A DNA stretch of 61,993 nucleotides, filler included, from Dugesia japonica (lineage: Eukaryota): NCBI GenBank assembly GCA_001938525.1. It is 6 parts of 6 records of this genome, joined end to end, with 100 filler letters (N's around TTAATTAATTAA, not from the genome) between each part and the next. Parts side by side here need not be neighbours in the genome. Positions count along the whole stretch, not along the records: positions 30,414 to 43,999 come from MQRL01634635.1; 5 more parts are not named here. One strand, given 5' to 3'. The position numbers and the translations under genes are program-made. Numbering within the stretch: position 1 is the first letter of the stretch; the number at the start of each line of letters is the position of its first letter. The notes beneath the pieces were generated by a model. That model did no database searches, was not told where the DNA came from, and worked only from the letters and a program-made list of their open reading frames with translations. Below, one piece after another: positions 7,523 to 58,999 of this stretch.

Positions 7523-7574
7523 CTTGATTTTTGAAAAATAAACAACTGATAATTGAATGACATATTACACTTAC

Positions 7575-11291: not shown

Positions 11292-11391
11292 NNNNNNNNN
11301 NNNNNNNNNNNNNNNNNNNNNNNNNNNNNNNNNNNTTAATTAATTAANNNNNNNNNNNNNNNNNNNNNNNNNNNNNNNNNNNNNNNNNNNN
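11292..11391. other. Artificial contig-joining spacer N44-TTAATTAATTAA-N44
   Basis: Exactly 100 nt; the central 12-mer puts stop codons in all six frames; occurs 5 times identically. Confidence 0.95.
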
Positions 11392-15549: not shown

Positions 15550-16524
15550 AGTTATATATCATTTATAATATGATATAAAATTTATTAATATTAAATGATT
15601 TTATTTGTTTAAATAATTCATTATTAATAAATATTTTTTGTTTTAATAAATAATTATGGAAAGTTCAAATTAAGATTACTAACGAAGGCAGGAAAAGATG
15701 GTCGATAGAAAGATTATTGCAAAACTACCATCTTTAACACAAGAATTGCTTATCCCAAAACCAAGTTTCTTTAAGGGTTCATCTGAAGCAGCTGGTGAAT
15801 GGATTCATAGAACAAAAGAATTTGATGCATAATGGAGCTATCATATGCGTTGGATATATTAATGATACGAGATGCGAAAGAATTATGGCTGCAAAATGCA
15901 TAGATGTAATCTTGACGAAGATTAAGATTAATGTAATCTGCGAAAAAGGGTTTCGTGAGTCATTTGTGATTTCAGAGACACTGATGGATAAAATATCACT
16001 TTTGTTGATGATCAAACAAAACCCAACTGAAAAATATCGTAATTTCGAGTTAAGAGTAAGAAAAATAGTAAATGAAGTTTTCGTGAGTAAAAAAACTCTA
16101 GATGAAATTGCAACAATATTTGTAATTAATGAATGCAACACAACAAAGATCAACTGGTCTATTTCCTTTTGAATTTATCTTTGGAAAAAGAATAGTTTTA
16201 CACGGATAACCACGAGACGGAAATCCGAAACACGAAGAAATGAGAAAACTGGCAGCTGAAAATTTACAGAAAGCCTATAAAAAATTAAGCAAATACGAAT
16301 GTAAAAGCGAACGTCCAGACATTTTGAAGCAGGGGACAAAGTATTATTGAAAGTAGAACCATACAAGTTAAAGAAAGACAGTTTCAGGTATGAGGGTCCT
16401 TACAAAATTAGTAAATTTATAAGCCCCCATCAGGTACTTATAGATTATGCAGGACAGCTTAAACCCTGAAGACTTGAATGGCTGAAGAAAATTGAAAATG
16501 AAAATTAGAAAGAGAGAGAGAGAT

Positions 16525-20159: not shown

Positions 20160-20742
20160 TTGATCTCTTCTTTAACTGTAAAGCCTATATTTGGATGCAA
20201 GTTATTCATATACTCCAAAAACGGATGTACTTAATAGCGATTTTTAAAAACAAGAAAAATATCATCGACATAACGTTTATAAACTAAGGGTTTAACAGAA
20301 TAATAATCATTAATCTCACACTCTAATTTAGACATGAAAATACAAGCTAATGTTGGACCTATCCATCACCACACCACCAATATGTCTATACCATTCATCA
20401 TTAAAAAGTAATGAACATTCGATGTTGCAAAAGTTAAAAGATCATGAAATGCTATATCATCTTTAGTAGATTTATTAGGATTAGAATCACTCCATATTTC
20501 ACAACACAATCTGTTGTCTCTTAATGGAACATTAGTAAATAAATTTGTGACAAATGAGACCATAAAGCAATCATTACTAGTCAATGGATACTGAGAAATA
20601 GAAGATGAAAATTCAAAACTATCTTTGTACTCAAATTCAGAGAAATGTAAAGGCTTAATAAGCTTATCCAAACAGTTTGGCAACCTTATATTGAGCTGTT
20701 TTTATCATGGATAAAACAGGACGCATAGGAACATCTTTCTTA
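20160..20742 (-). pseudogene. Penelope-like reverse transcriptase fragment
   Basis: VPMRPVLS, VSF-VTNLFTNVPL and YKRYVDDIFLVF motifs across frameshifted frames. Confidence 0.8.
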
Positions 20743-20842
20743 NNNNNNNNNNNNNNNNNNNNNNNNNNNNNNNNNNNNNNNNNNNNTTAATTAATTAANN
20801 NNNNNNNNNNNNNNNNNNNNNNNNNNNNNNNNNNNNNNNNNN
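20743..20842. other. Artificial contig-joining spacer
   Basis: N44-TTAATTAATTAA-N44. Confidence 0.95.
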
Positions 20843-23828: not shown

Positions 23829-23901
23829 CAATTGCATGCAACAGATTCTCGAAAGTGTAAATTACTGTCACCAGAATAATATTATTCATCGAGATTTAAA
23901 G
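23829..23901 (+). CDS. CAMK2: CaMKII kinase-domain exon (73 nt)
   Basis: tttttcag| ... |gtaaaa; translates [24 protein letters not shown]. Confidence 0.92.
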
Positions 23902-24289: not shown

Positions 24290-24910
24290 TCGACACAGTT
24301 CTAAAAAGTCTGATGATAAAGTGAAGATAAAATCACGAAAGGCGTTTTTCGCAGCCTCTTTAGATTTGTATGTTTTTTCCACCAAGAAGAAATGTTTCGA
24401 AGAAATGACAGTCCGTTGGAACAAGGTCTGGTGAATACGGTGGGTGATAAAGAGTATTCAATTTCAACCCTTGCAGTTTGTAATCGTTGTTTGGGCAACA
24501 TTTGGTCAAGCGTTGTCTTGCAAGAGATCTAGCCTGTCTCTATTGACCAATATCAGCTGTTTAATCGCAAGCAATCTCATCAATGTGATCCAATGAGTTG
24601 TGGTAAACATCCGCTGTTATGGAGTGACCAGATTTCAATAATTTGCAATGGATAATACAAACGCTGGATCACAAAACTGATACCATTAGTTTCTTTTCGT
24701 GAATATTCGGCTTTGGATTCTGTTTTGGTGCTTCATTGTTATCCAACTATTGAGATGAACGCTTGCGATTATCAAAACGAATCCAATTTTCATCACATGT
24801 CACGATACGTTGAAGAAATTTTTCGCCTTTATGTCATGACAGTAAAAAAAGAAAAGCGTCGAAACGATTTATTTTCTGCTGGTAGCTTAATTCATACGCA
24901 AAGCGTCGGT
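24290..24910 (-). mobile_element. Mariner-like transposase remnant inside a CaMKII intron
   Basis: Minus-strand remnants of the IVTCDENWI, LQDNA and YSPDLVPTDCHFFR motifs in mixed frames. Confidence 0.75.
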
Positions 24911-28930: not shown

Positions 28931-29036
28931 CCCGAAAATCTTTTACTATCCAGCAAATCTAAGAACGCTAGAGTTAAGTTAGCTGATTTTGGATTAGCTG
29001 TTGAAATGAAAGAGAATGAGGAAGCGTCCTGGCTTG
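28931..29036 (+). CDS. CAMK2: CaMKII kinase-domain exon (106 nt)
   Basis: ttctag| ... |gttagt; translates [35 protein letters not shown](G). Phase is compatible with both flanking exons. Confidence 0.93.
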
Positions 29037-29328: not shown

Positions 29329-29421
<93 letters not shown>

Positions 29422-30313: not shown

Positions 30314-30413
30314 NNNNNNNNNNNNNNNNNNNNNNNNNNNNNNNNNNNNNNNNNNNNTTAATTAATTAANNNNNNNNNNNNNNNNNNNNNNNNNNNNNNN
30401 NNNNNNNNNNNNN
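30314..30413. other. Artificial contig-joining spacer
   Basis: N44-TTAATTAATTAA-N44. Confidence 0.95.
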
Positions 30414-31485
30414 ATTGTGTATAATGAAATTTCAGGAAGACCCTGTTTAAAGTTAAAATTAAATAACGAATTAAATGTTGATTGTTTACTTGATAATGGC
30501 GCTTAGAATAATATGATTGATCACGCAATATTTTTAAAATGAAATATTGCTAAAATTAAAAGTGAATTAATTAAAGAGAATTAATGTTACTTGTGCTAAT
30601 GAAAATCAACAAAAATAATAGGAAGTATTATATTATAAATTAAACTTAATAATCAAACAGAATATATAAAGTTTTATGTTGCAGAAAATATTTCTCCCAG
30701 TGTTATTGCAGGAATCGATTTTTTATTTAAATTTAATATAAAATTAAAAATGCTAAATTATATTAATAAAGAAATATTGGAAATAAAAACTATGAACTTT
30801 AAAAATAAATAATTCATTTTTTAAAAAAACAATTTTAACTATTGATCTGTCAAATAAATGAATACATAATTTTATTTAAAATAAAAATTTTTTAAAAGCA
30901 AAATATCAAAATTGTTGTTATTTTTTTAATAATAACCAATGAAAATTAGATTTAATCAAATTTATTTCATTTCAGTTGTTATTTCAAAGTTTATTATCAG
31001 AATTTACTGAACTTTTGTTTCTGAAGATGGGATAGCCGAAATATTGAAAAAAAGAACAACAATTTTGATCTTTTGCTTTTAAAACATTATATTTTTAAAG
31101 AAATTTTTTATTCACTTATTTAAAAATGAAGTGAAAAAAAATATTAGTGATGTAATCGAACCAATTTCAGAAATTTTATGAAAGATAAATGGGATGTAGG
31201 TTAGACAACACTATTAAAACATGAAATTGTTACCCATGGTGGTCCAGTTGTAGTAAGTTCTATTCGGCAACCTATTCATTTAGAAAATAAAATTAATAAG
31301 GCTATTTTAGAAATGAATGAAAAAAGTATAATTAAACAATGTGATTCTGAGTGGAATAGTTCATTAGTTTGTGTTTGGAAGAAAGAGAAAAAAGACATTA
31401 AAATATGCTTGGATTTTAGATTATTGAATAATATAACGGAGAGACCATTGTTCCCAATANCAAATATAGGATAAATGCTTGNNNT
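30414..31485 (+). pseudogene. Degenerate Ty3/gypsy protease-RT fragment
   Basis: CLLDNGA protease motif at ~30483; HEIVTHGGPV...CDSEWNSSLVCVWKKEKKDIKICLDFRLLN (RT N-terminus) at ~31220-31460. Confidence 0.8.
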
Positions 31486-33044
31486 GATTAATCTAATGTT
31501 TGATTTCCGGCTACATCAAAGTTTAATATTGGTAGTATTTAAAAGTTGTGAAAATATTGTTAAATTAATTATTATTATTATTATTTTAACATTTTATGCA
31601 CACTTTAGATCAGGCATTTGAAACTTAGTAGTGACAAATAGCCGGAAAATAGATATTACATCAAATCGCGGGCCTAATTTTTAACTTGAATTTAAAAACA
31701 GTATAAAGAAAAAAGTTTTGAAATTAATATAGGAGCCGAACACAATCAAGTAGAGGTCCGTACGTTGCATATTTCTGCTTTAGATCGATAGATGGATAGA
31801 TAGATTCACTTGTACTAAATTAACTTGCTAATGATGTATTTATATGAAAATAATTTCAATATTTTATTTAATTGTGATTCTGAAAAATTTATTTAAAAGA
31901 TTTTCCTAAAACACTTACTTTCAATAATTTTCAAAGATTTCGTTGACCGTTATAGGGCGACATGTCATCAATGTGATTATTGCATTATTTAAGTAAGATA
32001 TAAACTAGTCTTTGAAACTACAGTTGCAGTTGTAAACAATAAATAATGTAATAATAATAAAGTCAACTTCTATTATTATACATACTGAAAATATTTTAAT
32101 ATGATAAGTTGATAACAAGTAACAAAACATTGAAAAATAATCGGACACGTAGTCGGAGTATGCAGGCAGGCAAAGAAGATCCTCGCACCGGTACTGATAA
32201 ATAATATTAATAAATAAATAATGGACCATTTATTAATTATTTCAACAAAATTGGGGAGTGGGTTTGAAGTAGTTTGACAATTGTTGACAAAAACAAAGAG
32301 TGTCTAAGATAAATTGACGCCAATAATTTTTTTGCAGTAAATTTTAAAAATATTTTAAAAAAAGTAAACATTTGTTGACATAATTTTATTAAAAGAATCA
32401 TTGAAATTTCAATAGTTGTTGACAAGGAAAAGGGAGGTTGAAATATGNCTTTAAAATTTTTAACATAATATTTGCCTTTAATATAAATAATATTAATAAT
32501 TGTTTTACAATTGCAATTATTGCGAGAATAATTGTTGGACTTAACCATTAATCGTTTTAAAGAATTCATTTAATATAAAAGCTTTGATCAAAATTTAGNN
32601 NNNNNNNNNNNNNNNNNNNNNNNNNNNNNNNNNNNNNNNNNNNNNNNNNNNNNNNNNNNNNNNNNNNNNNNNNNNNNNNNNNNNNNNNNNNNNNNNNNNN
32701 NNNNNNNNNNNNNNNNNNNNNNNNNNNNNNNNNNNNNNNNNNNNAAAATTAATTATTGCTTATTACTAATAATAAGTTGTTAGCTGTAAAACAGTAAATA
32801 ACAAAAATTGAAAATTATTTAAATCATAACCAATTTATTAATTTATCGAAATACAAAATAATATGAACTCAAATATAAGTAAAAAAAACAAATGAAAAAC
32901 ATTCATTCATGCTATAAAAGAATACGTCAAATATATTGACAAAAACATTTTAAGTTTGAACAAATGAAATTTCTTGTTTACAATTCTTTTTTAAAACTAT
33001 TTGGAATGTTTTCTTAACGTTAATTAATTTTGATGATTCATTTA

Positions 33045-33611
33045 TTAACTCCCACGCCTGGGTAATTTAGAAACAGTTGGGGATATTTCTTTATCATCCG
33101 GTAGGATAACTTGTTCATTTTTATTTTGTTTACTATACTGTTTGGATTTTATATTTAAATTTAACTGATTTGTAGGAATTCTTGATTCGGTTCTTAATGA
33201 TTCTAATTGTCGAGAGATTATGCTACTATCTATTTCTTGAAATTGTGGTGTTGAAACTAAATTCTCTAAAATCTGTTTGGTATTTTCTATGTTTTGTATA
33301 CCTTGTAAAATCAATCTTATTTGATCAACAATTATTGAAATATAAAACATTATCATGGGTTCCATTGATTCAAGACCAATTAATGTTGATGCCAAAATAT
33401 TGGCTTCATCATTATTAGAAATTGAAGAATTTGAAGACAATTTCCAAAAATTCAACAACTTAATACTGGATTGTAATAGCAATTCAATAGAGTTTGTGGT
33501 TTCTGAAGTTCCATTATTTATTTCCAGAATTGTTTGTTTGATAAATTGTAAAAATCTGCTTGTTGTTTGATTTTCAACTTGCAACACGAGAGCCATAAAA
33601 TCAATTAACAA
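33045..33611 (-). CDS. Hypothetical protein (~183-188 aa, helical), family not recognised
   Basis: 567-nt stop-free frame in very AT-rich DNA; AATAAA overlaps the stop on the - strand; no TE motif seen. Confidence 0.5.
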   Translation of the reverse strand: MLIDFMALVLQVENQTTSRFLQFIKQTILEINNGTSETTNSIELLLQSSIKLLNFWKLSSNSSISNNDEANILASTLIGLESMEPMIMFYISIIVDQIRLILQGIQNIENTKQILENLVSTPQFQEIDSSIISRQLESLRTESRIPTNQLNLNIKSKQYSKQNKNEQVILPDDKEISPTVSKLPRRGS

Positions 33612-34149
33612 TATTTATTTATTTATTAGTAATAATATTTTAATGAATTTGAAATATTAAGTGTATTTTTTATATAATTATATTATACATAAAATTCAAT
33701 ATACTGTTAACAGTTTTATAAGCTTTTAATCTTATCTATAATAAAAAAGTGTGTATTTATGTGTGTGCTTCGTATGTATTATTTTTTCTAACCTTATTTG
33801 ACAATATAATCACTTATTAAACTTTTAGTAAGTTTTTATGCATATAAATCTATTTTACTATAAATTATAGGTGGCAGCCAATCAGAATACAATAAATTAT
33901 TATAAGGTTAGCATTATAATGCACTTTCCACTTATTAAACTTTTAACGGTAAATCAGTTTTCATATACTTAAAAATAAAAAACTTTCATTAATATTTTTT
34001 TATTCATGATGTTTTTATTATTGTTATGATATAGATTTTGAAGAAACTGACACTTTTTTGGATTAATTCCCATACCAGCCTTCACTATTTTCATCTATAC
34101 TCGGTTAATTACTTCATAATATTGATCTTTATTGTTTCTAAATATAGGA

Positions 34150-34720
34150 ATGTCATCTATATATACCATGGCTTAATTAATTCCGCCTACAACTTTCGCC
34201 AATCTCTCTTGAAATGTGCCTGGTGTCGCTACAATGCCAAATGTCATTCTATAAGTATAATATAGTCCATGTTTCTTTGAAAACACCGTTTTATCTGGAG
34301 ATTCTTCTTTAAACTCTACTCGATAGAAAACATGTCCAAAATTATTTGAACTGAAGTATTTTGATTCATCTAATTTCTCTAGCAATTTATAAACGTTAGG
34401 AAGTAAAAAACTTGCCTTTTTGTTACTTCAGTCTGTAATCTAAGCATATTTTTATGTATTTCCCTTTCTTTTTAAACACAAATCAGTTGAGTATTCAACG
34501 GAGAGTTACATTTCCGTATAATATTATTTTCATACAAGTTTTGGATAGTTTCTTTAATTTTAGCATCTAAGTTCATTGGTTGTCTGTATTTGTGCATCTT
34601 ACATAACATCTTTTTTTATTTTCTGTTTATTTGATTAACTTTTGATCGACTTTAATCATTAGAGTATTTATCTATGGGCGAAACAAATTAACAAATTAAT
34701 CCTATTATGATCGATAATCA
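34150..34720 (-). pseudogene. Ty3/gypsy RT fragment
   Basis: KTVFSKKHGLYYTYRMTFGIVATPGTFQE, plus upstream SPLNTQLICV and downstream YIDDI remnants. Confidence 0.8.
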
Positions 34721-35236
34721 AATTTTAGAAGACATTTGAAAAGAGGAAAATACTTTATACAAATATCTAGGAATCCAAAAAAGACATATGATTGTCTATA
34801 ACCTACTATAAAGAAGTGTAACTTTGTAATGGAAATAATTAATAAAAGCATTTTCCTCCCTTGACAAAAATTGATGGCTACACAAGAAATTATTACTTTT
34901 TTTCAGAATATATAAAACAGTAATTTCAAATTTTAAATTCTCACTAAAATAAATTCTTGGAGGAGACCCACATTGGAAATTAAAAATTATCGTAAAATAT
35001 CAACTTGGAAATCAGATCTAAAACCATTGTTGGGGTTCCACCTGAGTTGGGTGATAAGAAAAGACGGCTGGGGGAAAAACAGCCCTCAGGGGAACCCATT
35101 CAATGAATACCAAGGGCAGCGAGCTATAACACCTATTTACCAAGCTCCAAAGGATGGTAATCTAAAAGACAGAAAAGACACCCTCAAAGAAACGATAAGA
35201 TCAGGCCCAAGATCATACAATCAACAATGGCACACA

Positions 35237-36618
35237 ACTTCTACAGTGCTAATGTCCTCGGAACAGGATGAGACCATCCTTTTAATTAAAGGAAATTTGA
35301 TGTCAAAGTGTTGGCAAATCGTGTATAAAACAAACTTTAAAGGAATATTCGTGTCAGAACATCGAATAAAAACAGCGCAAGTCGCAGTAATGTCACAGAA
35401 TATTAAATTGCATCTATACGCCAATAATAAAATGGACAATTTGTTCCATCAGATGCAAGATACCATCGGACGAATGTACCACGATCTTATAAAAAATGAT
35501 TGCACATTAAATAAAGAAATAGTAAAGACAAAACTAGCAATGGCGGTTACGAATCCAGATAGTGTCACCCCACTGCTCCCCCTAGAAAAAGGACAATTCG
35601 GTCGTGTAGTAGGAGAAGTAATGTACCTATATAAATGCAAGGCCATAGATGCCGAGTTCTCGTCTAATCCAAAGAACTGCTACAACGAGATAGAAATCAT
35701 TCATAACAACGAGAAACGATACGTACAACCGATTACTCGAATCATATCACCACTGGGCTATAAGCCAAATATCATAAATTGTTCTAATGTATTTGGACCA
35801 CAATACATAATGACCGGCGGTTCATGGATAAGATTCCCTCAACGAATGGCAGTAGGGATCGAACCAAGAAAATTCTCCATGTTACGGTTAAATGGGGGCA
35901 TGCAATTTACTCCAATTGATGTAAACAAGGGGAAATTTACAGCAGGGAAGACCTAGAGAAAGCCAGGGAATATATGTTGTTTCCAGTCCGAAGGATGCAA
36001 ATCCTATCAAATATAGTACAATTAACCAGTGGAACTAACATAGATGGACGAGTTAATTACGATGCATTATTATCAGCAGAACACTTTTAAAAGGCCACAG
36101 AAAACGTCATGCGGAAAATGTGGGGACGATTCATCATATTTGGACAAGCAATGGCCGGGTTGTTGGGAGTTATGTTGATAATTTCGGTAACACGATTAGT
36201 GATTACTCAATTATTCGCATGTTTTGACATATGCAAAAAAGAGAAGAAGGTGAATTGGTAAATGGTTACGGGAATATTTCCATTTTTAGCCAAAACTATG
36301 GTACTTAACAGTCACTCTAAAGACATCGATAGAGTAAAACGATTTATTCGAAAACTCGGACAAATAAGAGGATCGGACAAAGAGGTCATAATGCAATTGA
36401 GGTTATTGTGCGAAGAAATGAGCAACGCAAAAAAGAAAATATCATATTTCAATCAATTCAAAGAAAGATTTAAAAGCAAGGATGGAAGTAGTAGCAGCAG
36501 CGACGATGATAGAGGAGAAAGCAGTGGAACACCACATGTACCCAGTTATAAAATCGCTATGGAATACGAGGCAGAGTTCAAAAGGCAACAATACGAAAAA
36601 ATCAGCAAAATGCAGTGA
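35237..36618 (+). pseudogene. Chuvirus-like (gB/class III-type) envelope glycoprotein, C-terminal half with TM and tail
   Basis: LYANNKM..MYHDLIKNDCTLNKEI..GRVVGEVMYLYKC..CYNEIEI..YVQPITRII..C. After a 1-nt frameshift at ~35930 it continues IYSREDLEKAREYMLFP..MWGRFIIFGQAMAGLLGVMLII (TM, ~36118-36225). Premature TAA at 36088 and 36259. Motif spacing recognised from chuviral G proteins; no search run. Confidence 0.82.
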
Positions 36619-36654
36619 CTGAAAAACGGAGGTAACGGAAACACACCAGCACAA

Positions 36655-37305
36655 ATGTATTACAACGCCTATCCACAATATGGTTGGCAACCCATGAACC
36701 AACCACCCCAACAGGTATGTGCACCAGGTCCCATGTACAACAGTCCGTATATAAGCCCACCACAAGCTCCCAATATGGCGCTATTAACAGAGAGTAATGT
36801 ATCAACCATGGACCGAAGAGTGACCGAACAAAACTTGCGCACTCCGAATAACCAAATTACTCAGGATAATAAGTTAGAAACACAGACTGTATGTATGATG
36901 ATTTCTCAGAAAGCAAAATTATTACAAAAACGGATAAAAATCGACGGAAGATGGGTAATAGCCATTATTGATACAGGAGCAAGTACGACGTTAGTCCACA
37001 AAAGAATATTAGAAGATTATCGACTACTTAGAATAACCATAACTAAAGGAGTTATCATCACGGCCGCTGGAGAAAAAGTCTCATCCGTTGGAGAAGCAAT
37101 ATGTGCGATAGAAAGTGACGGAATCTGTTTCTGGCATAAACTGCAAATAATGAACGAATTAACATTCGACTGTCTACTAGGATTAAACCTCTTGCCACGC
37201 CTTTGTCCTGAAGGGATATTGGATTTGAGAAAACTAACGATACAGGAAAATTACGACCAGGAATATGTCCCGGTAGGATACCAGAAAACTCGAATAATAA
37301 CCTAG
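36655..37305 (+). CDS. Pro/Gln-rich linker + retropepsin-like aspartic protease 1
   Basis: IKIDGRWVIAIIDTGASTT (DTG at 36970), ITAAGE flap and CLLGLNLL. Confidence 0.9.
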   Translation: MYYNAYPQYGWQPMNQPPQQVCAPGPMYNSPYISPPQAPNMALLTESNVSTMDRRVTEQNLRTPNNQITQDNKLETQTVCMMISQKAKLLQKRIKIDGRWVIAIIDTGASTTLVHKRILEDYRLLRITITKGVIITAAGEKVSSVGEAICAIESDGICFWHKLQIMNELTFDCLLGLNLLPRLCPEGILDLRKLTIQENYDQEYVPVGYQKTRIIT

Positions 37306-37362
37306 CAGAAACGACCCCGGCAATGGAATCAACCAACATCCAACTAGCTGCGGCAACGCCCA

Positions 37363-38220
37363 ATGGGCCAGAATGAACAAAACCACTTAAATCAGGACCG
37401 TCGGAAAATCACCAATACAGCCACCATGATAAGGGACGATTGGATAAGGTTCCAAGAACGAGAACCAAAATGGAAAAACAAAACACAATTAAACATCAGT
37501 CATAACCCTTCAGATGTGGTTTGCACAAGTTTTAACGGCGGACCAGTATTGACCATTATGGTTAAAATCAACGGCCGACCCATAACAGCCCTATTGGACA
37601 CAGGAGCAACCATATCGTTGCTATCAATAGATGAAATTGCGATAACCGAATACAAAAACATACTACCCACGAACACTACAGCAGATGTGGCAAATGGTAG
37701 TAGCCTCAAAATGTTTAGAGAATTAGCCTGTGAAGTCGAATATCAGGATAACAGCATTAAACACAATATGATCATAGTGGAAATGATGGGACAGTGTATA
37801 CTGGGAACAGACATTCTTCCCGTCCTGATGAAAAACGGTATATTAAACTTCTCAACATTACGGTTACAATCATTGGAGGGGTATACCCATGTGAAAGATC
37901 ATGAAGTATTCACCACAGAAGAAATCCTGGTGCCTAGTAGATGTCAAAGATATTGTGTAGTTAGTACCAAAAGTGCCTATGAAGGAGATTGTTATTTCGA
38001 ACCATATGACGGATTTGCACAACAGTACGAGTTACCTACAGCAGGACGAATAACCACGGTCAACAAAAGTGGTGAAGTACCAGTTAGTTTAGTTAACTTC
38101 ACGGAAAAAGATATCACGATCAAACCAAACTCCAGAATGGGTACACTAACTCCCATCGAACCAGAGCCCGAAGTGATAGAGGAAGTAGCCGCTGAACCGG
38201 AAATCGACAGAACGTTTTAA
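37363..38220 (+). CDS. Retropepsin-like aspartic protease 2 + beta-rich spacer
   Basis: VKINGRPITALLDTGATISL (DTG at 37597), DVANGS flap and CILGTDIL. Confidence 0.92.
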   Translation: MGQNEQNHLNQDRRKITNTATMIRDDWIRFQEREPKWKNKTQLNISHNPSDVVCTSFNGGPVLTIMVKINGRPITALLDTGATISLLSIDEIAITEYKNILPTNTTADVANGSSLKMFRELACEVEYQDNSIKHNMIIVEMMGQCILGTDILPVLMKNGILNFSTLRLQSLEGYTHVKDHEVFTTEEILVPSRCQRYCVVSTKSAYEGDCYFEPYDGFAQQYELPTAGRITTVNKSGEVPVSLVNFTEKDITIKPNSRMGTLTPIEPEPEVIEEVAAEPEIDRTF

Positions 38221-38235
38221 GTAGAAACGGAAACT

Positions 38236-38880
38236 TTGTCGGAGGACCAGAAACAAGCAATACTGCAACTGCTGGAAGAATTCAGAGATATCTTTGCATG
38301 GACAGATGAGGAGTTGGGTATGTGCACAGCGACAATGCACACGATTCCGTTAACAGACGAAACCCCATGTAAACCGAAGCCATACGCCATGACAGTGGAG
38401 AAAAAGAGTTTGCAAATAAAGAAACAGCTAAATTAGTGAAAATCGGTGTAATAGAACCTAGCTGCTCACCATGCCAGTCACCAGTGGTGATAGTAGATAA
38501 AAAGGATGGGACACAGCGATTCTGCATTGATTACAGACGATTGAATGCTCAAACTAAGAAAGACGCATACCCATTGTCAGATATCAACGAATTATTGCAA
38601 TTACTGTGTAATGCTAAAATATTTACCACAATGGATTTGCGAAGCGGTTACTGGGAAATAAAAATCAAACCAGAAGATAGGGAGAAAACGGCCTTTTCCA
38701 CAGGCAAAGACTTATACCAATTTATCCGTATGCCATTCGGGTTTACTAATGCACCAGCCTCTTTCCAATGTATGATGAATTATGTGACTCACGGTATATC
38801 TCAATGTATGGCCCATATTGATGATCTACTAATCTATTCACAAACCTTTGAAGGGCGCCTAAATGAATCACGTTCATGGG
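38236..38880 (+). pseudogene. Ty3/gypsy reverse transcriptase (frameshifted, thumb truncated)
   Basis: RFCIDYRRLN, MDLRSGYWEI, KTAFST, RMPFGFTNAPASFQ and HIDD (YxDD variant). A 1-nt indel lies in the A-run at ~38401-38405. Confidence 0.95.
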
Positions 38881-40939
38881 GCAGAAATCATTACGATGGA
38901 ATAGAATGACCAAGTGGCAACTGGCAATGCAGGATTATTGCTCTCTGTTAAAGTTTAAAACGGGTAAAGCAAACTGGAATGCTGATTGCCTGTCCAGAAT
39001 CGGTGGACCAGAAAATACGGAGAACACACCAGAAAATACAGAAACGTTCACATTGCGAGAACTGTTGGAGAAAAAAGTGGAAATGGTATATTTCATACTA
39101 GCTGAAGATAAAAATTTTGATGGACTAAAGCAAGCCCAGGCTGATGATGATGAGATCAAGATCATTACGAAATACATGGAAACTTACAATTTAGAAAAAT
39201 TAGAATGTAACCCCAAAATGAAAGAGCATCTAAAGAAGAATGGCGGTAGGTATGCACTCACCAAGGGATGGTTGACAGCTCAGGACGGAGATAATACCGT
39301 ACTAGTCATCCCTAAAGCAAGACGGGATAAGCTACTTGAACAATATCACAATTGTGTATTAGGAGGACATATGTCCCACAAGAAAACCGAATCAAAATTA
39401 AGACAGAAATATTACTGGCCGCATNTGACAGAATCCGTGACGGAATGGATAGCTAAATGCCAAATACGTGCCGCCAGAAGAGGAACAGGCAAAAGAGTAA
39501 AAGCATTATTGAAACCAATCGCGGTACCAGCCACACCAATGGAAATCATCGCTATGGATGTAGTTGAACCATTACCACCAACGCTAAGCGGAAATATTTA
39601 CATACTTACCATAATGGATTATTTATCTAAATTCCCAGAAGCATTTCCAATGAAAAATCAAAAGGCCACAACTATAGCCGATATACTGGTACGAAAAGTT
39701 TTCAGCAGATACGGCACACCAAAGAAAATATTGACCGACCAAGGAAATAATTTTATGAGCAACATCTTAGAAGAGATATCGAGCTTCCTCAAAATTCACC
39801 AATTACGAGCCTCACCTTATCATCCTCAAACAGATGGGTTAACAGAACGATTTAATAAAACCCTGATCAATATGTTGTCCAGTAACGCTCAGAAGGAGCA
39901 AAACAACTGGGATAAACATATTCAGCTATGTCTATTCGCATATAGAATGAGTGTGCATCCTCCCACAAAATACACTTCGTTTGGTCTTATGTACGGTAGA
40001 GAATGTAACATGCCTATTGACTTGGAATTCCAACCACCGATAACACAGTATCAAGACGAAACGGATTTTGCTGCAAATTTCAAGGAGACCATGAAGAAGA
40101 TATGGAAACAAGCCAAGGAGAATGTAGGATTCTACCAGGAGCAACATTCCTTTAAAAAAGGCGACATGGTATTAATCAATTTACCAGACATTTGTGTCGG
40201 TACGACATCGAAATTAAAAAGACCATGGCAAAGATCTTATGAAGTAATCGAAGTAACAGAAACTAATCTCAAGGTTCGAAAGAAAGGGAACCTACTAGTG
40301 AAGCCAAAGATATACCACGCCAACTTGTGCAAAAAGGCAGCGATGACAGAAGAAGCTGCGCCGGCCACAAGCACCGAACCCACTGCGACGGAACATAGAG
40401 GGCCAGGTCGACCACGGAAGTCGGAAAGAATAGAATTAAATATATCACACAGCTATCCATTACAATCACAACAAGCCATTATGGTACTGAGAAAATCGTT
40501 AACAAATCCTTCACCACGGAGGAGTATGGAAACAATGTTACAGGAAAACTGTCTCAGCGAGGACGCTGAGTTTGAAGAAAACGGGGAACGGTTAATAACG
40601 GAAAAAACGAAAAAAGCAAAACAAGAAACGGGTCTACCTGCTGCAAATGCAGAAAGAACAGAAACAGAATTACAAAAGATAACTAGGGTAATAAAGATTC
40701 ATGTTTGTAGGCACGCAGTCAACCAAGAAAAAGCTAAGGAGGGTAGTACAATCATAAATACCTCACCAAGTATTTTGGGGATAAAACAAACAAGTAAAAT
40801 ACGTAGAATCAAACATGCATCGAGTAATATTCAATCCCAGCAAACACGTCAAAGTGCGTCGTTGATTTATAATAAAGAAATTGTTATGAAACAAAAGGCT
40901 AAAACATTATCTTTCAATTCAGGTAACCAAATGCGCTGA
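38876..40939 (+). CDS. RNase H C-terminal remnant + integrase + long basic C-terminal extension
   Basis: NADCLSR; zinc finger H-x6-H..C-x2-(C>R); DDE core AMDVV / LTDQG / GLTERFN; RPWQRSY (GPY-like); AT-hook RGPGRPRK at 40397-40420. Confidence 0.95.
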   Translation: MGQKSLRWNRMTKWQLAMQDYCSLLKFKTGKANWNADCLSRIGGPENTENTPENTETFTLRELLEKKVEMVYFILAEDKNFDGLKQAQADDDEIKIITKYMETYNLEKLECNPKMKEHLKKNGGRYALTKGWLTAQDGDNTVLVIPKARRDKLLEQYHNCVLGGHMSHKKTESKLRQKYYWPHXTESVTEWIAKCQIRAARRGTGKRVKALLKPIAVPATPMEIIAMDVVEPLPPTLSGNIYILTIMDYLSKFPEAFPMKNQKATTIADILVRKVFSRYGTPKKILTDQGNNFMSNILEEISSFLKIHQLRASPYHPQTDGLTERFNKTLINMLSSNAQKEQNNWDKHIQLCLFAYRMSVHPPTKYTSFGLMYGRECNMPIDLEFQPPITQYQDETDFAANFKETMKKIWKQAKENVGFYQEQHSFKKGDMVLINLPDICVGTTSKLKRPWQRSYEVIEVTETNLKVRKKGNLLVKPKIYHANLCKKAAMTEEAAPATSTEPTATEHRGPGRPRKSERIELNISHSYPLQSQQAIMVLRKSLTNPSPRRSMETMLQENCLSEDAEFEENGERLITEKTKKAKQETGLPAANAERTETELQKITRVIKIHVCRHAVNQEKAKEGSTIINTSPSILGIKQTSKIRRIKHASSNIQSQQTRQSASLIYNKEIVMKQKAKTLSFNSGNQMR

Positions 40940-40945
40940 CAACTT

Positions 40946-43351
40946 ATGATAGAGGCTATGAGTGCCACCACAATCTATCCAATCACATACCAAGGAATCC
41001 AAACACCTAGAACAAAGGAGAATTGTGTCCATATCAGAAAGATAACATGCCCACTTTCAGTAATTCAATTGAAAGGAAATTGTTCGCAATGTATAAAGAA
41101 GACGCAAATTATACTAAAAATCACTTTAAAGGCTATTTACGACCAGAAAACATGGTTAACAAGACGGGAAAATTGGTACAAAAAAGATTGTGAAGGGTCA
41201 CGAATCGAATTACCAATTGAAGCATCTATCCGGCAATCCACCCTTAAAAAGTTGTGTCTATCTTGTACCGAAGTATACAGCAAAGAATTGTTAGCATCCA
41301 TCCATCTATTTCATTATACATTAGTGCAATGGAACTGGATTAGATTATATGAACCTTTAGAAATTCAATTGCCATGGGGCATGATCCTAAGCAAATTAAC
41401 TTGGAAGAAATCGAAAGCAATCAATATCGCAAATCCTCATGAAGAATCAAAAAAACAAGGGAAATCGACGAGAGAAATATTCCAGGACCAAGGGGGTGGA
41501 ATGGAAGAAAGAGAAAAGCAATTAGTCAGAGCAACGCCCAGAAGGGGGAAGAAAAGGAAAATGACATGGATACAAGATGAGGGAGAACAAATAGAACCAA
41601 TAAAACCAAAAAAGGATATATTACAAAGAAGCGAGAATGGGATTACAATGGAAATAATAGTTAAAATATCTCTGTTGTTATGGGCAGTAATCAACACAAG
41701 TTGGGACTATGGCATATTAATTTGGCTGACAATGAGAGTTATCGGAAATATGGGAAGAGGACTCCCCATGTCAGTTATGCTTTATGGGATCACGGGAATA
41801 ATCCTCGTAGGGCTGTCGCTACCAACATTAGCAATGCAACAAGTACCAGTAACCTCTCAGAAAGAAGTTTCCAGTGGGCAAATTATACTAACAACTATAA
41901 TAATGATCATAAAGGGGATCAGAGGGCAGGAATGCCAGGTAAACGAACCAGTCCTAACAGAACACAGAGTATTCATCAAGGAAAAAAAGATACACGTCAA
42001 AACAATAAGTCGTACAGGATTACGGAGGGAACAGAAAACGCAAGCATTGTATAGTTACGGACAACTAATCCTAAAACCCGTAATAAAAAGTCAAAAAAGT
42101 ACCATGATCAAACTACACCAAGTAGCAGGGAAAATCATCATAGAATTCCTAAGCCAAGAACCAATAGACGGGAAACTATTAATGTTCGATACCGACAAGT
42201 GGCAGATAGAAAAAGTATGGGAAATAACATTGAAAAATTTAAATAATCCACTAATCTATGAAGCAAACAACGAATTCAAATTCTCACGAGAAATTAATTT
42301 TGTAATATATTATTCAGAAAATAACTTCAAGTACAAGGAATGGGTAACCAACGATACAGGAGATCCAATAACGAAAATATGTCCAAAAAACGAATATCTG
42401 TACCATACGATTATCTGGAAACACATGCAATATGAAACAGTATTATGGAACAAAAAGGGAAAAGAAATAGTACAAAAAAGCATAATAGTCATTCAAGGCA
42501 GAGAATTGTATTCCACAGTGAATCAGGAAATTGAGGGGTGGAAACCATACTGGCAACCAGGACCATATCCACTACAAGTAAAAAGAGTTAAAGGTGTGTA
42601 TTACATACGGTGTGTAGAAAAAGTGGAACAAGCCGTAATACATACGATTAAAGATCTCTACGAATGGGGATGGAAATTCACTAGTAAAGAGTATTGAAGG
42701 AGGGAAAAGTACCAGGAGATGAATATTGGAGAATTTGACAAGGATCTATGAGGATTTGAATTTATCACAATAATCAATCAGGATATAATAATCAAAACAA
42801 AAACAAAAGGAAAACAAAAGAGGACTACCAAAATGTCTACACACACGCCCAAATTATCAACTGCCACTAAAATACGGATAACCACCACAACAGAGAACCG
42901 TGAAAAGGAAGAAAAAAGAGCAAATTTTCTGAACAATTGGATGGCAAGCATACGCAAATTTCAACCAAGAAGAAATCAGATGGAAATAATAGAAAAATCC
43001 ACTGCAGAGCCCATGAGAACTACCACATTGCAACCAACAAGAGGCCATGAATTAGGATATGTGATAGGTATCGGAGGAGTTATTATTATGATGCTCATAA
43101 TAAGCATTATTTATTTACGTGTTTCAAAACCAAAGAAAAAGAAACACCACCGCAGCAAACGGGAGCGACAGTTACCATTCGACCCACCAAGTTATGAGAG
43201 AATTCCGCTAGGAAATACACCTCACGAATTACCAATGTACGTGCCCGGACACTACCAGGCACCGGGTATATTGGTGTGGTTAAATAAAAGGAAATTACTC
43301 GTAAATAGTGTAAATTATAAATTGAATATGTATATAGATAAAAAACAATAG
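40946..43351 (+). pseudogene. Unknown Cys-containing domain followed by a predicted type-I membrane protein (internal signal segments, ectodomain, Thr-rich stalk, TM, basic tail with PPSY)
   Basis: ORFs 40946-42697 and 42833-43351 are the same frame, separated by TGA at 42695 and 42749. Hydrophobic segments at ~41648-41925; TM LGYVIGIGGVIIMMLIISIIYL at ~43052-43117; PPSY at 43184-43195. Confidence 0.7.
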
Positions 43352-43999
43352 CGAGCTTAATCAATGTTTCACATTCAGGAATGAACCTCAAAGAAGCAAC
43401 AAACGAAAATGAAGTTATGGACTCCCAAACTGATTTAGCAACGAGCCCACCATTCACCAGAAATTCTCCACTAATAAATAATCTTATAAACAATATACCC
43501 CCACAAGCAACTATAAACGAAATCTGACAAAACCATAACGAGGAAATGAAAGAATTGTGGAATAGTGCTAAGACCCAAACACTATGGACCCAACAACGAT
43601 TAGAAGAAATGGAGCACCATCAAAATCAGTTAGTACAAACCTTAATAACAACGAAACCCTTAGATTGGTGCGAATCGGTATTCAAAAATAAAATCTTACA
43701 ACTATAAAATGAAAATCTCTATGCAGAAACCCTTATGTGTCGCCAACAACTAATAGAAAATCGTCGAATGTTGGAAATCGTTACAGAAAAAAAAATTATT
43801 CAATGGAGTTGGTAGCTAAACAACGCGACCAGATCTCTGATCAGTCGGAAAAACAAAAAAAAAGAAATTAGTGAACTCGCAAAGGTGGGAAATCGAGACA
43901 CTCAAGACCCGGAGTGCCCACACCCAAGTCAGCTTTGTCTAAAATCCAAGAGAGAGTGGAAGTTAAAAAAAAAAGAAATAAAATAGATAAAAATAAATA

Positions 44000-44099
44000 N
44001 NNNNNNNNNNNNNNNNNNNNNNNNNNNNNNNNNNNNNNNNNNNTTAATTAATTAANNNNNNNNNNNNNNNNNNNNNNNNNNNNNNNNNNNNNNNNNNNN
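44000..44099. other. Artificial contig-joining spacer
   Basis: N44-TTAATTAATTAA-N44. Confidence 0.95.
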
Positions 44100-45540
44100 A
44101 GAATTTGATTTTGATCTTCAATTTCGTAAAGGCATTGATCATGGTAATGCTGATGGATTATCAAGAATAGGAGGAAGTTTATGTGCCCAATGTTTGACGA
44201 CTCATCACGATGCAAAAGGTTAAAAATCTAGAGTTAGAAGAATTGATATTGTAGAAAGCTCAAGTTATGATAAAGAAAGTATCATAAAAATTCAAAATAG
44301 TGACCAAATTACCAAAGAGATAATTGAATATTTTAAAGATCAAAGCTTCCAAGTTAGTAAAAATTTAATTAAAAGTAAATACTTCAGAGATATTGATATA
44401 TTCGTTAGGGAAGAAGATATATTGCTGTTTCTTGATAAAAATTCGAAGGTAAACCAGTGGTTGATTTAATAAATTAAATTCATGAANNNNNNNNNNNNNN
44501 NNNNNNNNNNNNNNNNNNNNNNNNNNNNNNNNNNNNNNNNNNNNNNNNNNNNNNNNNNNNNNNNNNNNNNNNNNAAATGCCTAATTTGCAATCAAAGGAA
44601 AACATATACAGGCAAAACAAAAGAAATTTTATTATTTCGAACCGAATTTGGAGCATTAGAACAGATTGTCATTGATATAGCTTATTTTGATGAATTAAAG
44701 TTAAAGAAGTATGTTTTAGTCATTATAGATCGATCCAGCAAACTTGTTAGCCTGTCAGCCATGGGAAAACAAGACGAAAAATCTGTAGTTGAATCAATAA
44801 AAGAGAATTGGATATTTAGATTCAGCAAGCCCAAATTCATACTGACAGATANACTGGCAAGATATTNGAAGGAAAATTGGTNAAAGGAATGAATCAGAAA
44901 TTNGGAATTACCCAAGAATTTTCGTCTCCATACTAACATCAATCAAACGGATTGGCAGAAAGAACGATCAGGACTCTAGGTGATATGATTCTCACTACAA
45001 TAAAAATTGGATGTGAAGTTAGTTGGGATAAGCTATTACCTCGAATTCAATTTTCAATTAATGCAACCCAACAAAAGGCAACTGGAGTATCACCGTTTGA
45101 AATAATTTATGGAAGAAAAATTATGATTCATGGACCTTTACTAAATGATAATGCAGGCAGTGGAGAAGTTAGAGATTTAGTCGATAAAAATTTGAAAAAT
45201 GCGGCACTGAAATTAAATGAATATGAATCAGATAAAAGAGTACACCAGAATTTTATTGAAGGGGAAGAAGTTCTAGTAAAGGTAGAGCCTCACAACTTGA
45301 ATAAAAATGGATACAGATATGAAGGTCCTTTTGTAATATTAAAATTTTTAAGCCCACATCAAGTGCTTTTAAATTATTCTGGATTCCCCAGACCACGAAG
45401 GATCGAGCGGCTAAAAAAGCAGATGTTCAAAAAGATTTAAAAGGATGGATGTTAGATATAATATTCAAACATATTTGTTTAAATATTATTGATTTATTAT
45501 AATTTTAATAAAGTTTGAAAATGTCTACTTTTGAATTACA
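44100..45540 (+). mobile_element. 3' part of a Ty3/gypsy element: RNase H end, integrase, PPT and short LTR
   Basis: EFDFDLQFRKGIDHGNADGLSR; IDIAY / LTD / NGLAERT; YEGPF. Purine tract 45439-45449, then a TG...CA LTR-like segment at 45450-45540. Confidence 0.85.
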
Positions 45541-46389: not shown

Positions 46390-46732
46390 TATTTAAGGTT
46401 TAATGAATAAAGAACAATATCACCAAATATTAATTAGCAAATGGTACCTTCGGCAAAAAAAATTGTTACCCGATGGTAATTACATGTTTCAGGATGATAA
46501 TGATCCGAAACACAAAGCGAAAATTATTCAAGAATATTTAGGGAGGAAGAATATTACAACTTTATACTGGCCATCTCCAACTCAAGATTTAAATCCTATT
46601 GTAAACTATTCTATTGAAATATTTAAAATTATAGAAGTAAGAGGAAAAATTTACAAACAGATTTCCTCACTAATCTTGTTGGAAGTATGCCAAGCTGTGA
46701 TTGACAATGATGGATTACCACCGAAATATTGA
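46390..46732 (+). pseudogene. Tc1-like transposase C-terminal fragment
   Basis: FQDDNDPKHKAK and WPSPTQDLNPI motifs. Confidence 0.85.
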
Positions 46733-51138: not shown

Positions 51139-52677
51139 CATAGTGTGACAATAAAGTTTTAAAACTGGGTCTGTAAAATCAAACGAAAACAAAATATAAC
51201 ATTTTATTGTTTTATTTATTCAAAATAATCCCCTCCGGCTTCAATGTATCTGTTACACCGATTTAATAAAGATTAAAATGTCTGTTCCAGTTGATGTTGA
51301 GGTATATTCTCTAAAATGCGTGTAGAAAATGTTTTTATGGTTGTAACGTCATAAAAAATAAAACCATTTAAATTTTATTTTAAGTTTCGGGAATAAGGAG
51401 AAATCAAAAGGGGCTAAGACAGGCGAATATGATGGATGATTCAACACAAATTGAATGTTTGAATGATTGGTGTTTGATTGGGTGCCGTATTGTGCATCAA
51501 ATACCTACTGTTTCCATCGCGATATTCAGGACGAATACAATGAATTCTGGATATAAAACGTTTGGCAACTTCTACATAATATAAGGATGTAATTGTAACA
51601 GATATTACAATAACAGAGATTACAACTTCGAAATAATATTAGGCTGTAATCATTTATCCAAGTAGTGCAAATTATTTGTAAAAAATACCGTCACTATCGA
51701 AGAAAACGATGAGTATTGTTTTGCTTTTTGATAGCACTTTTCTTATTTTATTGAATTGAGGTGAGTCCCGTGTCTTTCTTTGTCTTTTAGTTTTTGGATC
51801 ATATTGAAAGCACCATGTATCATCACTTGTTACAGTAGATACCGGGAAATTAACATCATTTCTAGCAGCTGAAATGATGTCTTTGCAATTTTCAATTCTA
51901 TTGGATTTTTGTTCGTTGATTAGGTAGAGCGGAACAAATTTATTTGTTTTCAAAAACTGGTGTAAAATTGTTCGGATTACTTTTGTTGACCGTCAGAGCC
52001 TTTTCTATCATTATCAATGACGCACAACGAATTTTTCCTGTGATCAACATGAAATTGACCATCCCGTACTTTTATCGTCTTCCAAGAAACGTCTGTCACA
52101 AAAAAATATTTGACCTGCTTAAACAAAGATCACCCTAAACTTGATGAATCAATTGGAATGCTTTAGATGCACTTTTTCCAAGTTTGGCATTAAATTTAAT
52201 AACAGGTCTTTGTTCCATCTTAAATTTTCAACATGAAAAAAATTGTTCGCATGTAAAACATGTTATATCTCTGGACATTGGTTATTTATTGATTTGAATT
52301 TTCGATTGCTAATAGATTCGCGCTTTAATATTTATATTTGATTTCATATATACAGGGAGTTAGTTAAACATGAGACAAAAATTTAAGGGATTATTCCTTG
52401 GATGTTTATACATATAAATATATCATTATATCTTTTCAAAATGATTTGTTTATTGTAAATAAATCTTATGCGTATTGAAATTGTTTGTGTTTTTAAAATC
52501 TTTAAATGTGTATCTTTGAAACGAGACGACCTAGAAAAAAGTGTTACTATATAATTATTCATAAAATAAGGCAAGGAATAATTCCTTAAATTTTTGCCCC
52601 ATGTTTAACTAACACCTTGAATGTACACTGACAGCTTAGATATAGTGTCAATCTTAAAACTTAATTGTCACACTATG
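51139..52677 (-). mobile_element. Full-length degenerate mariner element with nested MITE
   Basis: TIRs CATAGTGTGACAATAAAGTTTTAA / TTAAAACTTAATTGTCACACTATG, both flanked by TA. Transposase remnant 52218-51216 (MEQRPVIKFNAKLGKS...VTSDDTWCFQYDP...GDYFE*). Confidence 0.9.
52353..52619. mobile_element. Tc1/mariner-type MITE (~270 nt)
   Basis: ~47-nt TIRs CAGGGAGTTAGTTAAACATGAGACAAAAATTTAAGGGAATTATTCCTTG / CAAGGAATAATTCCTTAAATTTTTGCCCCATGTTTAACTAACACCTTG; TA on the left. Confidence 0.85.
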
Positions 52678-53152: not shown

Positions 53153-53252
53153 NNNNNNNNNNNNNNNNNNNNNNNNNNNNNNNNNNNNNNNNNNNNTTAA
53201 TTAATTAANNNNNNNNNNNNNNNNNNNNNNNNNNNNNNNNNNNNNNNNNNNN
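53153..53252. other. Artificial contig-joining spacer
   Basis: N44-TTAATTAATTAA-N44. Confidence 0.95.
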
Positions 53253-57569: not shown

Positions 57570-58030
57570 GGTCAAACCTTTTGCCGACAAGAGCTGAATA
57601 AAAGAAACACATAATCTCGAGAGCAGCAATTAGAGAAATAGGAGCAATTAAGAACTTTCGTAAACCAAAATGTGTTAAGAAAATTAGAAGCTTTTTGGGA
57701 ATTTGCAATTACTATCGAAAGTTTATTAAAGATTATTCAAAGAAAGCTAGATTGCTGGAAAAGCTGTGTAGTGGGCCAAGTAACAAGAAAATTGAATGGG
57801 CAAATGAATTAGAAGAAGTTTTTAATGGAATGAAAGAAGCACTAATGATGTCTCCAATATTATGTTTACCAGATATAAATAGAGGATTTATTTTAGACAC
57901 GGATGCGAGTTTCGATACGATTGGGCAGTACTATCTCAAAAGGACAACAATGGTCAAGAAAGAGTAATTGCATATGGGTCACACACAATGACGAGTCATG
58001 AGAAAGGATATTGCAAAGGAAAGAATTGTT
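57570..58030 (+). pseudogene. Ty3/gypsy RT thumb/RNase H fragment
   Basis: IRSFLGICNYYRKFIKDYS, PILCLPD and FILDTDAS motifs. Confidence 0.9.
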
Positions 58031-58999
58031 TGATATTTAAAATTCACTTTTATAATTTATTTTAAAAAATACATACTTATTTACTTTTTATCAAATTTTA
58101 TATACATTAAAAATAATCAGAAAATATTTATCATTTACTGGTAGATCTAACTATTGTATTAAATTTTTTAAACTAAATTTTTGCCAGACTGATATTTTTT
58201 CGGCATTTAATAGAGCCGCATTTAACACACAGAAGGGCAACAATTTGCCAACTATAGTTATAACTGAATTATTTAGGTTTTGTATGGTTAAATTATTGTT
58301 TTTAGAGTAATAGGAAAAACAATAAACACTTGATGAATATCATGTGGCAAATAGAAATCTTCATTCGTGAACATTAAAAATTTCATGAAATTATCATCTA
58401 AAACTAATAATATGTATCTTTTTAATAATATAGTAAAATAGCAGAAATATTTATAATCAAATTATTGATTATTTTAATTAATGTTTATAAATTATTAATA
58501 AATCTAAATTTGAAACGAAAACCGGATTATAATTATACATCGCCATATGAAACTATTCTTTGCTATCTAATTAGTATATTTAAATTAATATAGCTGTTAT
58601 TTAATAGAAAATACTAACGAAATTTAATGTTAAACAAGCATCATTAATTTGACATCATTAATTAAACGACAAACTTTTTGTACACACACTTTAATGCAAA
58701 TTATTATCAATGGCTTAATTCTATTTAATAAACTACTATACTGGATTAAATCAATAAAGCGATAAATATATCCGAAAAGTTGGGTAAGATATTTTTTAGA
58801 TAATATAATTTTAATATCGAATGAAAAATAACATTTATATATTTTTTCAATTATTTTATGTAATATTTTAATTTAATTGATAACAATTTTGCATTTAAAT
58901 GTGTATCAAATTATTTTTCTTGTTAATAATCGAATTTAAATAATGAAATTTAATTTCCTGTTTTGTATGAATAGTTATCTATATTTTATCTTTATTAAT

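Follow-up and report, generated by a model that had tools for sequence, protein, structure and literature searches.

We propose that the segment from 35.0 to 44.0 kb of the window (the whole 61,993-nucleotide stretch of Dugesia japonica DNA that was analysed) is what remains of one env-bearing LTR retrotransposon of Ty3/gypsy type with the order GAG-ENV-POL, a single copy that has decayed, lost its 5′ end and undergone an internal deletion; to this reading we give a probability of about 0.88. Profile searches, predicted fold and tree agreed in placing the chuvirus-like glycoprotein (G) of gypsy elements in a retroelement clade that is deep and in which env is fused to pol, in frame and ahead of it. 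The preliminary description of this DNA had correctly seen that G was attached to a gypsy pol; it had missed that env precedes pol and shares the reading frame of the proteases.

Organisation of the Element

All the features of the element were on the plus strand, and Pfam searches gave the order G, first protease (PR1), second protease (PR2), weak dUTPase-like segment, reverse transcriptase (RT), integrase (IN), and an extension of approximately 1000 codons. Frame 1 was common to the 3′ half of G, PR1, PR2 and the start of the RT. The transmembrane (TM) helix of G ended at 36189 and PR1 started at 36934 in the same frame, env being upstream of pol and within 2 kb of it. Both retropepsin-type proteases, PR1 (36934–37197; PF13975, E 6.6e-07) and, in the same frame, PR2 (37558–37818; PF13975, E 8.1e-09; PF00077, E 1.4e-08), carried a DTG motif. 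The dUTPase-like segment between PR and RT (37990–38142) matched PF00692 weakly (E 0.024, 14.8 bits, under the cut-off of 22). The RT (38221–38867; RVT_1, E 7.8e-22) showed a frame change near 38400 and was truncated, with only the N-terminal part to the palm being present. It ended at a deletion junction (38867–38900), accompanied by a frame change and devoid of any N-gap, where about 200 codons corresponding to the C-terminal part of the RT and most of the RNase H (RH) were missing. The deletion was visible in the comparison with four relatives as a jump in residue numbering, from 1573 to 1787 in P0003, 1518 to 1713 in P0007, 1566 to 1786 in P0016 and 1660 to 1871 in P0022. The integrase (39308–40330; PF17921, E 8.2e-14; rve, E 4.8e-13) comprised the H2C2 finger, the core domain and the C-terminal part, and was 39% identical to that of P0003 over 520 columns. 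Beyond it, the pol frame continued into a long linker (40331–41635, with a stop at 40937 and no Pfam family) and a putative second, type I membrane protein (41636–43351, with stops at 42695 and 42749). The last feature, known from the frame map, was a further ORF remnant in frame 1 (43378–43983) with three stops, an element-like base composition and no Pfam family; this 3′-terminal remnant had a helical, coiled-coil-like sequence.

The base composition from 35.0 to 44.0 kb was uniform and A-rich, with 34–42% GC versus approximately 21–24% in the neighbouring flanks, the GC content of the whole AT-rich and repeat-rich window being 26.7%. The coding path contained 9 stops in about 2,780 codons, versus 14–135 per alternative frame and segment. 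In addition to these 9 stops, the breaks consisted of at least three frame changes and the deletion of about 200 codons, in what was a single copy within the window. At its 5′ end the element adjoined the AT-rich RT remnant of another gypsy family, located on the minus strand (34035–34482), and the 3′ end met the N-gap at 44000–44099 of a fragmented assembly. The 20 largest repeat families of the window included no LTR pair, and none was detected when both ends were compared with the window by blastn. Gag, a CCHC knuckle and the N-terminal part of G were not found in the six frames of the window, nor was a primer-binding site, and a search for tRNA genes gave none. Because the window yielded no gag, LTR pair or primer-binding site, the “GAG” part of the name and the LTR status rest on the relatives described below.

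Other Features of the Window

Other AT-rich gypsy remnants were observed at 31175–31492 (plus strand, RT), at the already mentioned 34035–34482 (minus strand, RT), at 44100–45440 (plus strand, RH end and IN) and at 57590–58060 (plus strand, RH), together with similar fragments of IN ends at 10732–10941 (minus strand) and 16210–16466 (plus strand). An ORF of 189 codons at 33045–33614 (minus strand), with no Pfam match, was located downstream of the minus-strand gypsy RT remnant. The segments 24300–24540 (minus), 46397–46732 (plus), 51350–51992 (minus), 59715–60700 (plus) and 20369–20701 (minus) are fragments with motifs resembling those of Tc1/mariner transposases and of an RT of Penelope/LINE type that has a GIY-YIG-like end. 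Spliced exons of a divergent kinase were found on the plus strand at 23850–23901 (the start being approximate), 28931–29034 and 29337–29420; from its motifs the kinase is presumably CaMKII-like. A motif search did not bring up the exon that should follow, so the element may lie in a large intron of this gene or beyond a scaffold break. Exons at 7163–8042 (minus strand) presumably resemble the C-terminal part of a VPS13-type protein; Pfam returned no family for 7407–8042. Five identical 100-base spacers (N44, a 12-base TTAA palindrome, N44) were located at 11292–11391, 20743–20842, 30314–30413, 44000–44099 and 53153–53252. As these spacers are joins, contiguity across them is not assured.

The Fusogen Remnant

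The six motifs that had drawn attention to the glycoprotein were all located, at 35477–36168. Four were in frame 2 (YHDL-x4-C-x-L at 35477–35509, GEVMYLYKC at 35612–35638, CYNEI at 35678–35692 and PITRII at 35729–35746) and two in frame 1 (IYSREDL-x6-MLFP at 35935–35985 and W-x2-F-x2-FG-x3-AGLLG at 36121–36168), the switch from frame 2 to frame 1 occurring near 35920–35935. The 5′ piece in frame 2 (35099–35929, with a start placed by eye) contained the central helix, the crown domain and the arm, as delineated by PF24664, by a profile of relatives from 35171 onwards and by the modelled fold. The 3′ piece in frame 1 (35923–36399), recognised by PF24664, hydropathy and the same profile of relatives, contained the membrane-proximal region, the TM helix and the start of the tail. 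A tail or linker without Pfam family (36400–36933) followed in the frame of the 3′ piece and of PR1, according to the map of frames and stops. Frame 1 was interrupted at 36088 and 36259, and once in the tail or linker, at 36616. The span 35237–36618 first assigned to the glycoprotein did contain G, but the homology extended from approximately 35171 (by eye perhaps 35099) to near 36400, the segment 36400–36618 being tail or linker beyond it.

The two pieces of G were searched separately against Pfam. Both were well above the curated cut-off of 27 bits for PF24664 (Monjiviricetes_fusion): the 5′ piece matched over 35231–35893 (E 1.1e-32, 113.3 bits, profile positions 245–463 of 653) and the 3′ piece over 35935–36231 (E 5.6e-18, 64.7 bits, positions 478–577 of 653). 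A profile made from 14 close relatives aligned with 35171–35920 (iE 1.5e-84) and 35923–36399 (iE 3.3e-35) and had no other match in the six frames of the whole window. With 616 homologous proteins at E ≤ 1e-3, the similarity of G is far beyond chance. A word-indexed homologue search with the G fragment found one protein among 468 candidates, and an alignment-based search confined to proteins of 2898–5000 amino acids (0 of 1120 candidates) was uninformative. Only the C-terminal 60% or so of G was present: the N-terminal part (signal peptide, domain I and fusion loops), equivalent to positions 1–244 of 653 in PF24664 and 1–264 of 678 in the profile of relatives, had no match in the window. The TM helix was located at 36133–36189 (KD 2.24), in the position of the C-terminal anchor of a class III fusogen.

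The AlphaFold model of the remnant (pLDDT 87.5) predicted a long central helix and a beta crown domain like those of gB and chuvirus G. A fold search with this model returned the G of chuviruses and xinmoviruses first, followed by herpes gB; the top Foldseek matches were of chuvirus type (E 1e-11). In the comparison of the G profile with the PDB, all 34 matches were herpes gB. These results support the assignment of G to the class III (gB-type) fusogens, in a family that includes chuvirus G, and the resemblance to chuviral G and gB initially proposed was borne out both by profile (PF24664, and gB in the PDB) and by fold. The family name proposed with it, “Chuviridae glycoprotein”, is too narrow, because the viral fold matches were a mixture of chu-, xinmo- and qin-related viruses at 14–27% identity, while the G of retroelement polyproteins were closer (31–45%) and fell in the same clade.

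Relatives of the Element

The best matches of G were long polyproteins with G in their interior, and the closest relatives were single-ORF polyproteins of the order (gag)-G-PR-RT-RH-IN. Among the best 150 of the 616 matches, 15 were at least 790 amino acids long; a retropepsin motif followed G in 11 of these 15, and at least two such motifs were present in 6 of the 11. G, PR, RT and RH were in one ORF in 5 of the 16 relatives scanned. Signs of gag or CCHC were visible before G in P0005, P0007, P0012, P0013 and P0022, and in the relatives a hydrophobic run directly preceded G. The same proteins were 42–51% identical to the window in the RT and 38–52% in the IN core. Because the G, RT and IN of these relatives all match, and do so in one ORF, we consider G and pol to be parts of one element that descends from a single gag-env-pol ORF.

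Tandem retropepsins, two to four in number, were observed in P0002, P0003, P0006, P0009, P0012 and P0013; the window has two (36934–37818, plus strand), both DTG. In P0013, self-comparison with phmmer revealed four protease-like stretches. In P0003, one protease was located after the integrase and C2H2-finger-like segments lay between two proteases. Residues 9–70 of P0004, directly before the signal and G, gave a weak match to the Bcl-2 family (E 0.00096), which recalls the layout of the Burro elements.

A quick maximum-likelihood tree of G was calculated with 133 rows after 18 of the 150 matches, shorter than 170 amino acids, had been dropped (SH-aLRT values, no bootstrap, midpoint rooting). 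The window G was found in a 19-row clade (SH-aLRT 98) with all 11 protease-bearing polyproteins, apart from most of the stand-alone G of about 650 amino acids. Identity in G among six members of the clade was 28–43%. For six elements, the identities in G and RT were weakly correlated (rho 0.43, p 0.11) and those in G and IN more clearly (rho 0.67, p 0.03), in pairs that were not independent.

Type of pol and Alternative Explanations

The best PDB match of the window RT was the Ty3 RT 4ol8 (E 3.2e-38), the other PDB comparators, with no BEL/Pao RT among them, including foamy virus (2e-15) and HIV (1e-7); a comparator at 6e-24 is what we take to be a caulimovirus-type “enzymatic polyprotein”. 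The best PDB matches of the integrase were those of foamy virus and Ty3. The order PR-PR-RT-IN, with the RH deleted between RT and IN, fits the PR-RT-RH-IN of Ty3/gypsy (Metaviridae), and the RH was present in 5 relatives. Pao-type Pfam families were not matched by the window pieces at E ≤ 1 or by 16 relatives at E ≤ 0.01. The Ty3/gypsy type of the RT and IN, already part of the preliminary description, was supported by the Pfam domains and by the Ty3 and foamy matches in the PDB. It is very improbable that the element belongs instead to BEL/Pao, as an Anakin- or Tas-like element: that superfamily also has the order PR-RT-RH-IN and, according to the text of PMC7642597, carries this glycoprotein family, but the same text places its env downstream of pol, whereas env is upstream in the window element. 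The RT was closest to Ty3 (E 3e-38), Pao-type families were missing from the window pieces and the 16 relatives, and the motif at 35333 was of TNFKG type versus TDHP in one mosquito BEL row of the supplement of PMC13524379 (Chary and Hayashi, eLife 2026). With neither a Pao-type pol nor an env downstream of pol, membership in BEL/Pao (Anakin) was rejected.

We also weighed the possibility that G and pol are neighbours by chance, G being a non-retroviral endogenous chuvirus fragment beside an unrelated gypsy pol, or the two forming a tandem of elements. The sections of PMC10084718 consulted report chuvirus G fragments often flanked by fragmentary gypsy copies, with capture evidence absent, and the window does contain several other gypsy remnants. 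Such a coincidence is hardly credible here. From G through PR1 and PR2 to the start of the RT the frame is kept, with only stops intervening; there is no LTR between G and PR; and the base composition, uniform over 35000–43990, is unlike that of the flanks. The closest G, fused to PR, RT and IN in the same order in single-ORF relatives, largely refute this explanation. Equally improbable is the domestication of the env fragment by the host, as a restriction factor or fusogen. The 339 open codons of the 5′ piece of G would suit it, as would the antiviral role proposed for solo glycoproteins of mosquitoes in the text of PMC7642597, yet G is as broken as the rest (a change of frame, two stops before or near the TM helix, no signal peptide) and stretches of 585–690 codons are open elsewhere in the element.

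Less improbable than the explanations above, yet still unlikely, is that this gypsy lineage acquired a chuvirus glycoprotein in a recent, lineage-specific capture, independently of the other env-bearing elements. The chuvirus-type G at the top of the Foldseek matches (E 1e-11) and the separate clade of polyprotein G, which fits one capture at its base, would agree with it; so would the statement in PMC13524379, as far as the text consulted goes, that GAG-ENV-POL elements are not monophyletic in pol, and the title of Sacco et al. 2022, which speaks of glycoprotein capture. Against it, the viral matches are merely 14–27% identical and spread across several virus groups, the polyprotein clade is already deep at 28–43% G identity among six members, and the unrooted tree indicates neither donor nor direction. 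The independent capture initially envisaged is thus not supported, the G tree being unrooted and ancient inheritance being argued in the consulted text of PMC13524379.

Proposed Mode of Action of the Ancestor

Under our preferred reading, a decayed copy of an env-bearing Ty3/gypsy element, the ancestor would have produced a single polyprotein that passed through the ER membrane. Its G ectodomain would have been directed into the lumen by an internal signal located after Gag, and the TM helix of G would have brought the chain back to the cytosol, where PR-RT-RH-IN followed. The parts were presumably freed by signal peptidase together with the proteases of the element itself. Trimeric G on budding particles may then have fused membranes, the element passing between cells, most plausibly from soma to germline or stem cells, by analogy with the errantiviruses of Drosophila. 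The potential infectivity that had been suggested does not apply to the present copy, which lacks the N-terminal part of G as well as the RNase H and has numerous breaks in its frame; it could concern only intact relatives. Because fusion loops, RNase H and open frames are absent, the copy is inactive, a fossil.

A Putative Second Membrane Protein beyond the Integrase

Hydropathy analysis of the segment 41636–43351 indicated two hydrophobic runs, one at 41636 and one at 41774, before a stretch resembling an ectodomain; a stalk rich in Thr, a TM segment at 43061–43117 and a basic tail completed the module. This layout was shared with P0003, P0007 and P0016: all three relatives that extend past the IN possessed two hydrophobic segments at least 150 residues apart, and in the shuffle control of the four tails the pattern arose in 34, 18, 7 and 0 of 1000. 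A weak FN3 lead was obtained for the ectodomain of P0007 (score 0.92, low recognition). The window protein had no homologue among 765 candidates of 195–622 amino acids; its best atlas score was 0.75, its best PDB match had an E of 0.2, Pfam gave nothing credible, and a single-sequence fold model (pLDDT 32) was unusable. An in-frame post-integrase membrane protein beside a gB-type env had no description in the openly readable text of the literature searched. PMC5408684, in the part consulted, deals with rotifer elements having separate TM-bearing ORF3s, not a further membrane protein that is encoded in frame and accompanies a gB-type env. The post-integrase type I membrane-like module therefore seems undescribed. 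Neither duplicated proteases nor a post-integrase membrane protein is mentioned in the text examined of PMC13524379, where the word “protease” occurs once; both may nevertheless be annotated already in its figures or in the authors' repository.

We tentatively suggest, by analogy with gD and gH for herpes gB, that this gypsy lineage might encode a two-glycoprotein entry machine in one polyprotein with at least four membrane crossings. The gB-type fusogen would be assisted by a fast-evolving post-integrase type I attachment or trigger protein, and the long precursor would be processed by the multiplied proteases, which number two in the window and as many as three or four in relatives. This proposal is possible rather than probable: the four post-integrase tails have no detectable homology to one another, that of the window is without relative or usable fold, and the virion role is putative. 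According to the consulted text of PMC13524379, it is unknown how gB-type errantiviruses achieve entry, since herpes gB needs partner glycoproteins. The recurring post-integrase membrane protein, if true, would be a concrete candidate partner of gB and would make the question of entry testable.

Comparison with Known Elements

The G of Jingchuvirales and Mononegavirales (PF24664) and herpesvirus gB have a profile and a fold in common with the window G; they differ from it by an identity of only 11–27% and by the embedding of the window G in a retroelement polyprotein. The Anakin elements, which belong to BEL/Pao and occur in mosquitoes (Dezordi et al. 2020, PMC7642597, in the text consulted), carry the same glycoprotein family in an LTR element, but with a BEL/Pao pol, an env downstream of the polyprotein in that superfamily and another motif at the tested position. 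Non-canonical ERVs of nematodes (Sacco et al. 2022, J Gen Virol, doi 10.1099/jgv.0.001739, as cited in PMC13524379) are metaviruses with env before pol, like the window element; the 18 nematode env rows in the supplement of PMC13524379 had no likeness by eye to the overlap region of the window G.

The giant planarian gypsy elements Burro/GYPSM1 (Arkhipova and Yushenova 2019, PMC6431247, in the parts consulted) have an in-frame env between gag and pol in one polyprotein. Like the window family, Burro shows matches to mononegavirus fusion glycoproteins and a dUTPase-like domain between PR and RT. It possesses a Bcl-2 part, to which the weak Bcl-2 match before G in P0004 may be compared, whereas the window has retained neither a Bcl-2 part nor one of MATH, BIR or ankyrin type. 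The Burro env is not classed as gB-type in the consulted parts of PMC6431247, where homology to gypsy Env is cited, and is likened here by description only.

As far as the portions consulted go, PMC13524379 describes 1,512 intact env-bearing Ty3/gypsy elements with an env of F-type or gB-type. The gB-type is reported in Ty3/gypsy across many phyla, 114 gypsy elements having been found with Anakin glycoprotein baits, and those of Nematoda, Bryozoa and Platyhelminthes have a gB-type env and the order GAG-ENV-POL. The gB-type “ancient errantiviruses” of the group Platyhelminthes C1a (Smed_errantivirus_1-6) share with the window a Ty3/gypsy pol, a gB-type env before pol and a TN[YF]KG-type motif. 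They differ in being intact and present in 1–215 copies according to the consulted portions, whereas the window copy is broken and devoid of gag, LTRs, RNase H and G domains I–II, in which the C1a cysteine-bridge pattern resides. With its stops, frame changes and deletion, and as a single copy in the window, it could not be classed as an intact multicopy GAG-ENV-POL errantivirus. Of five motif variants drawn from the window and its relatives, two, TNYKG and TNYPG, occurred in 4 rows of the sequence file of PMC13524379, all from Schmidtea, and 35237–35356 was identical by eye at 18 of 40 ungapped positions to the last 40 residues of Smed_errantivirus_6. The closest published sequences among the supplement rows examined were thus Schmidtea elements, and this 40-residue overlap and the five motif variants suggest that the “Platyhelminthes C1a” elements of Schmidtea fall in the same group as the window G. 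The pairing of a gB-type env with Ty3/gypsy is real and, from the consulted parts of PMC13524379 and PMC6431247, already published; the window element, which matters little alone, adds one decayed copy to a class described from 2019 to 2026.
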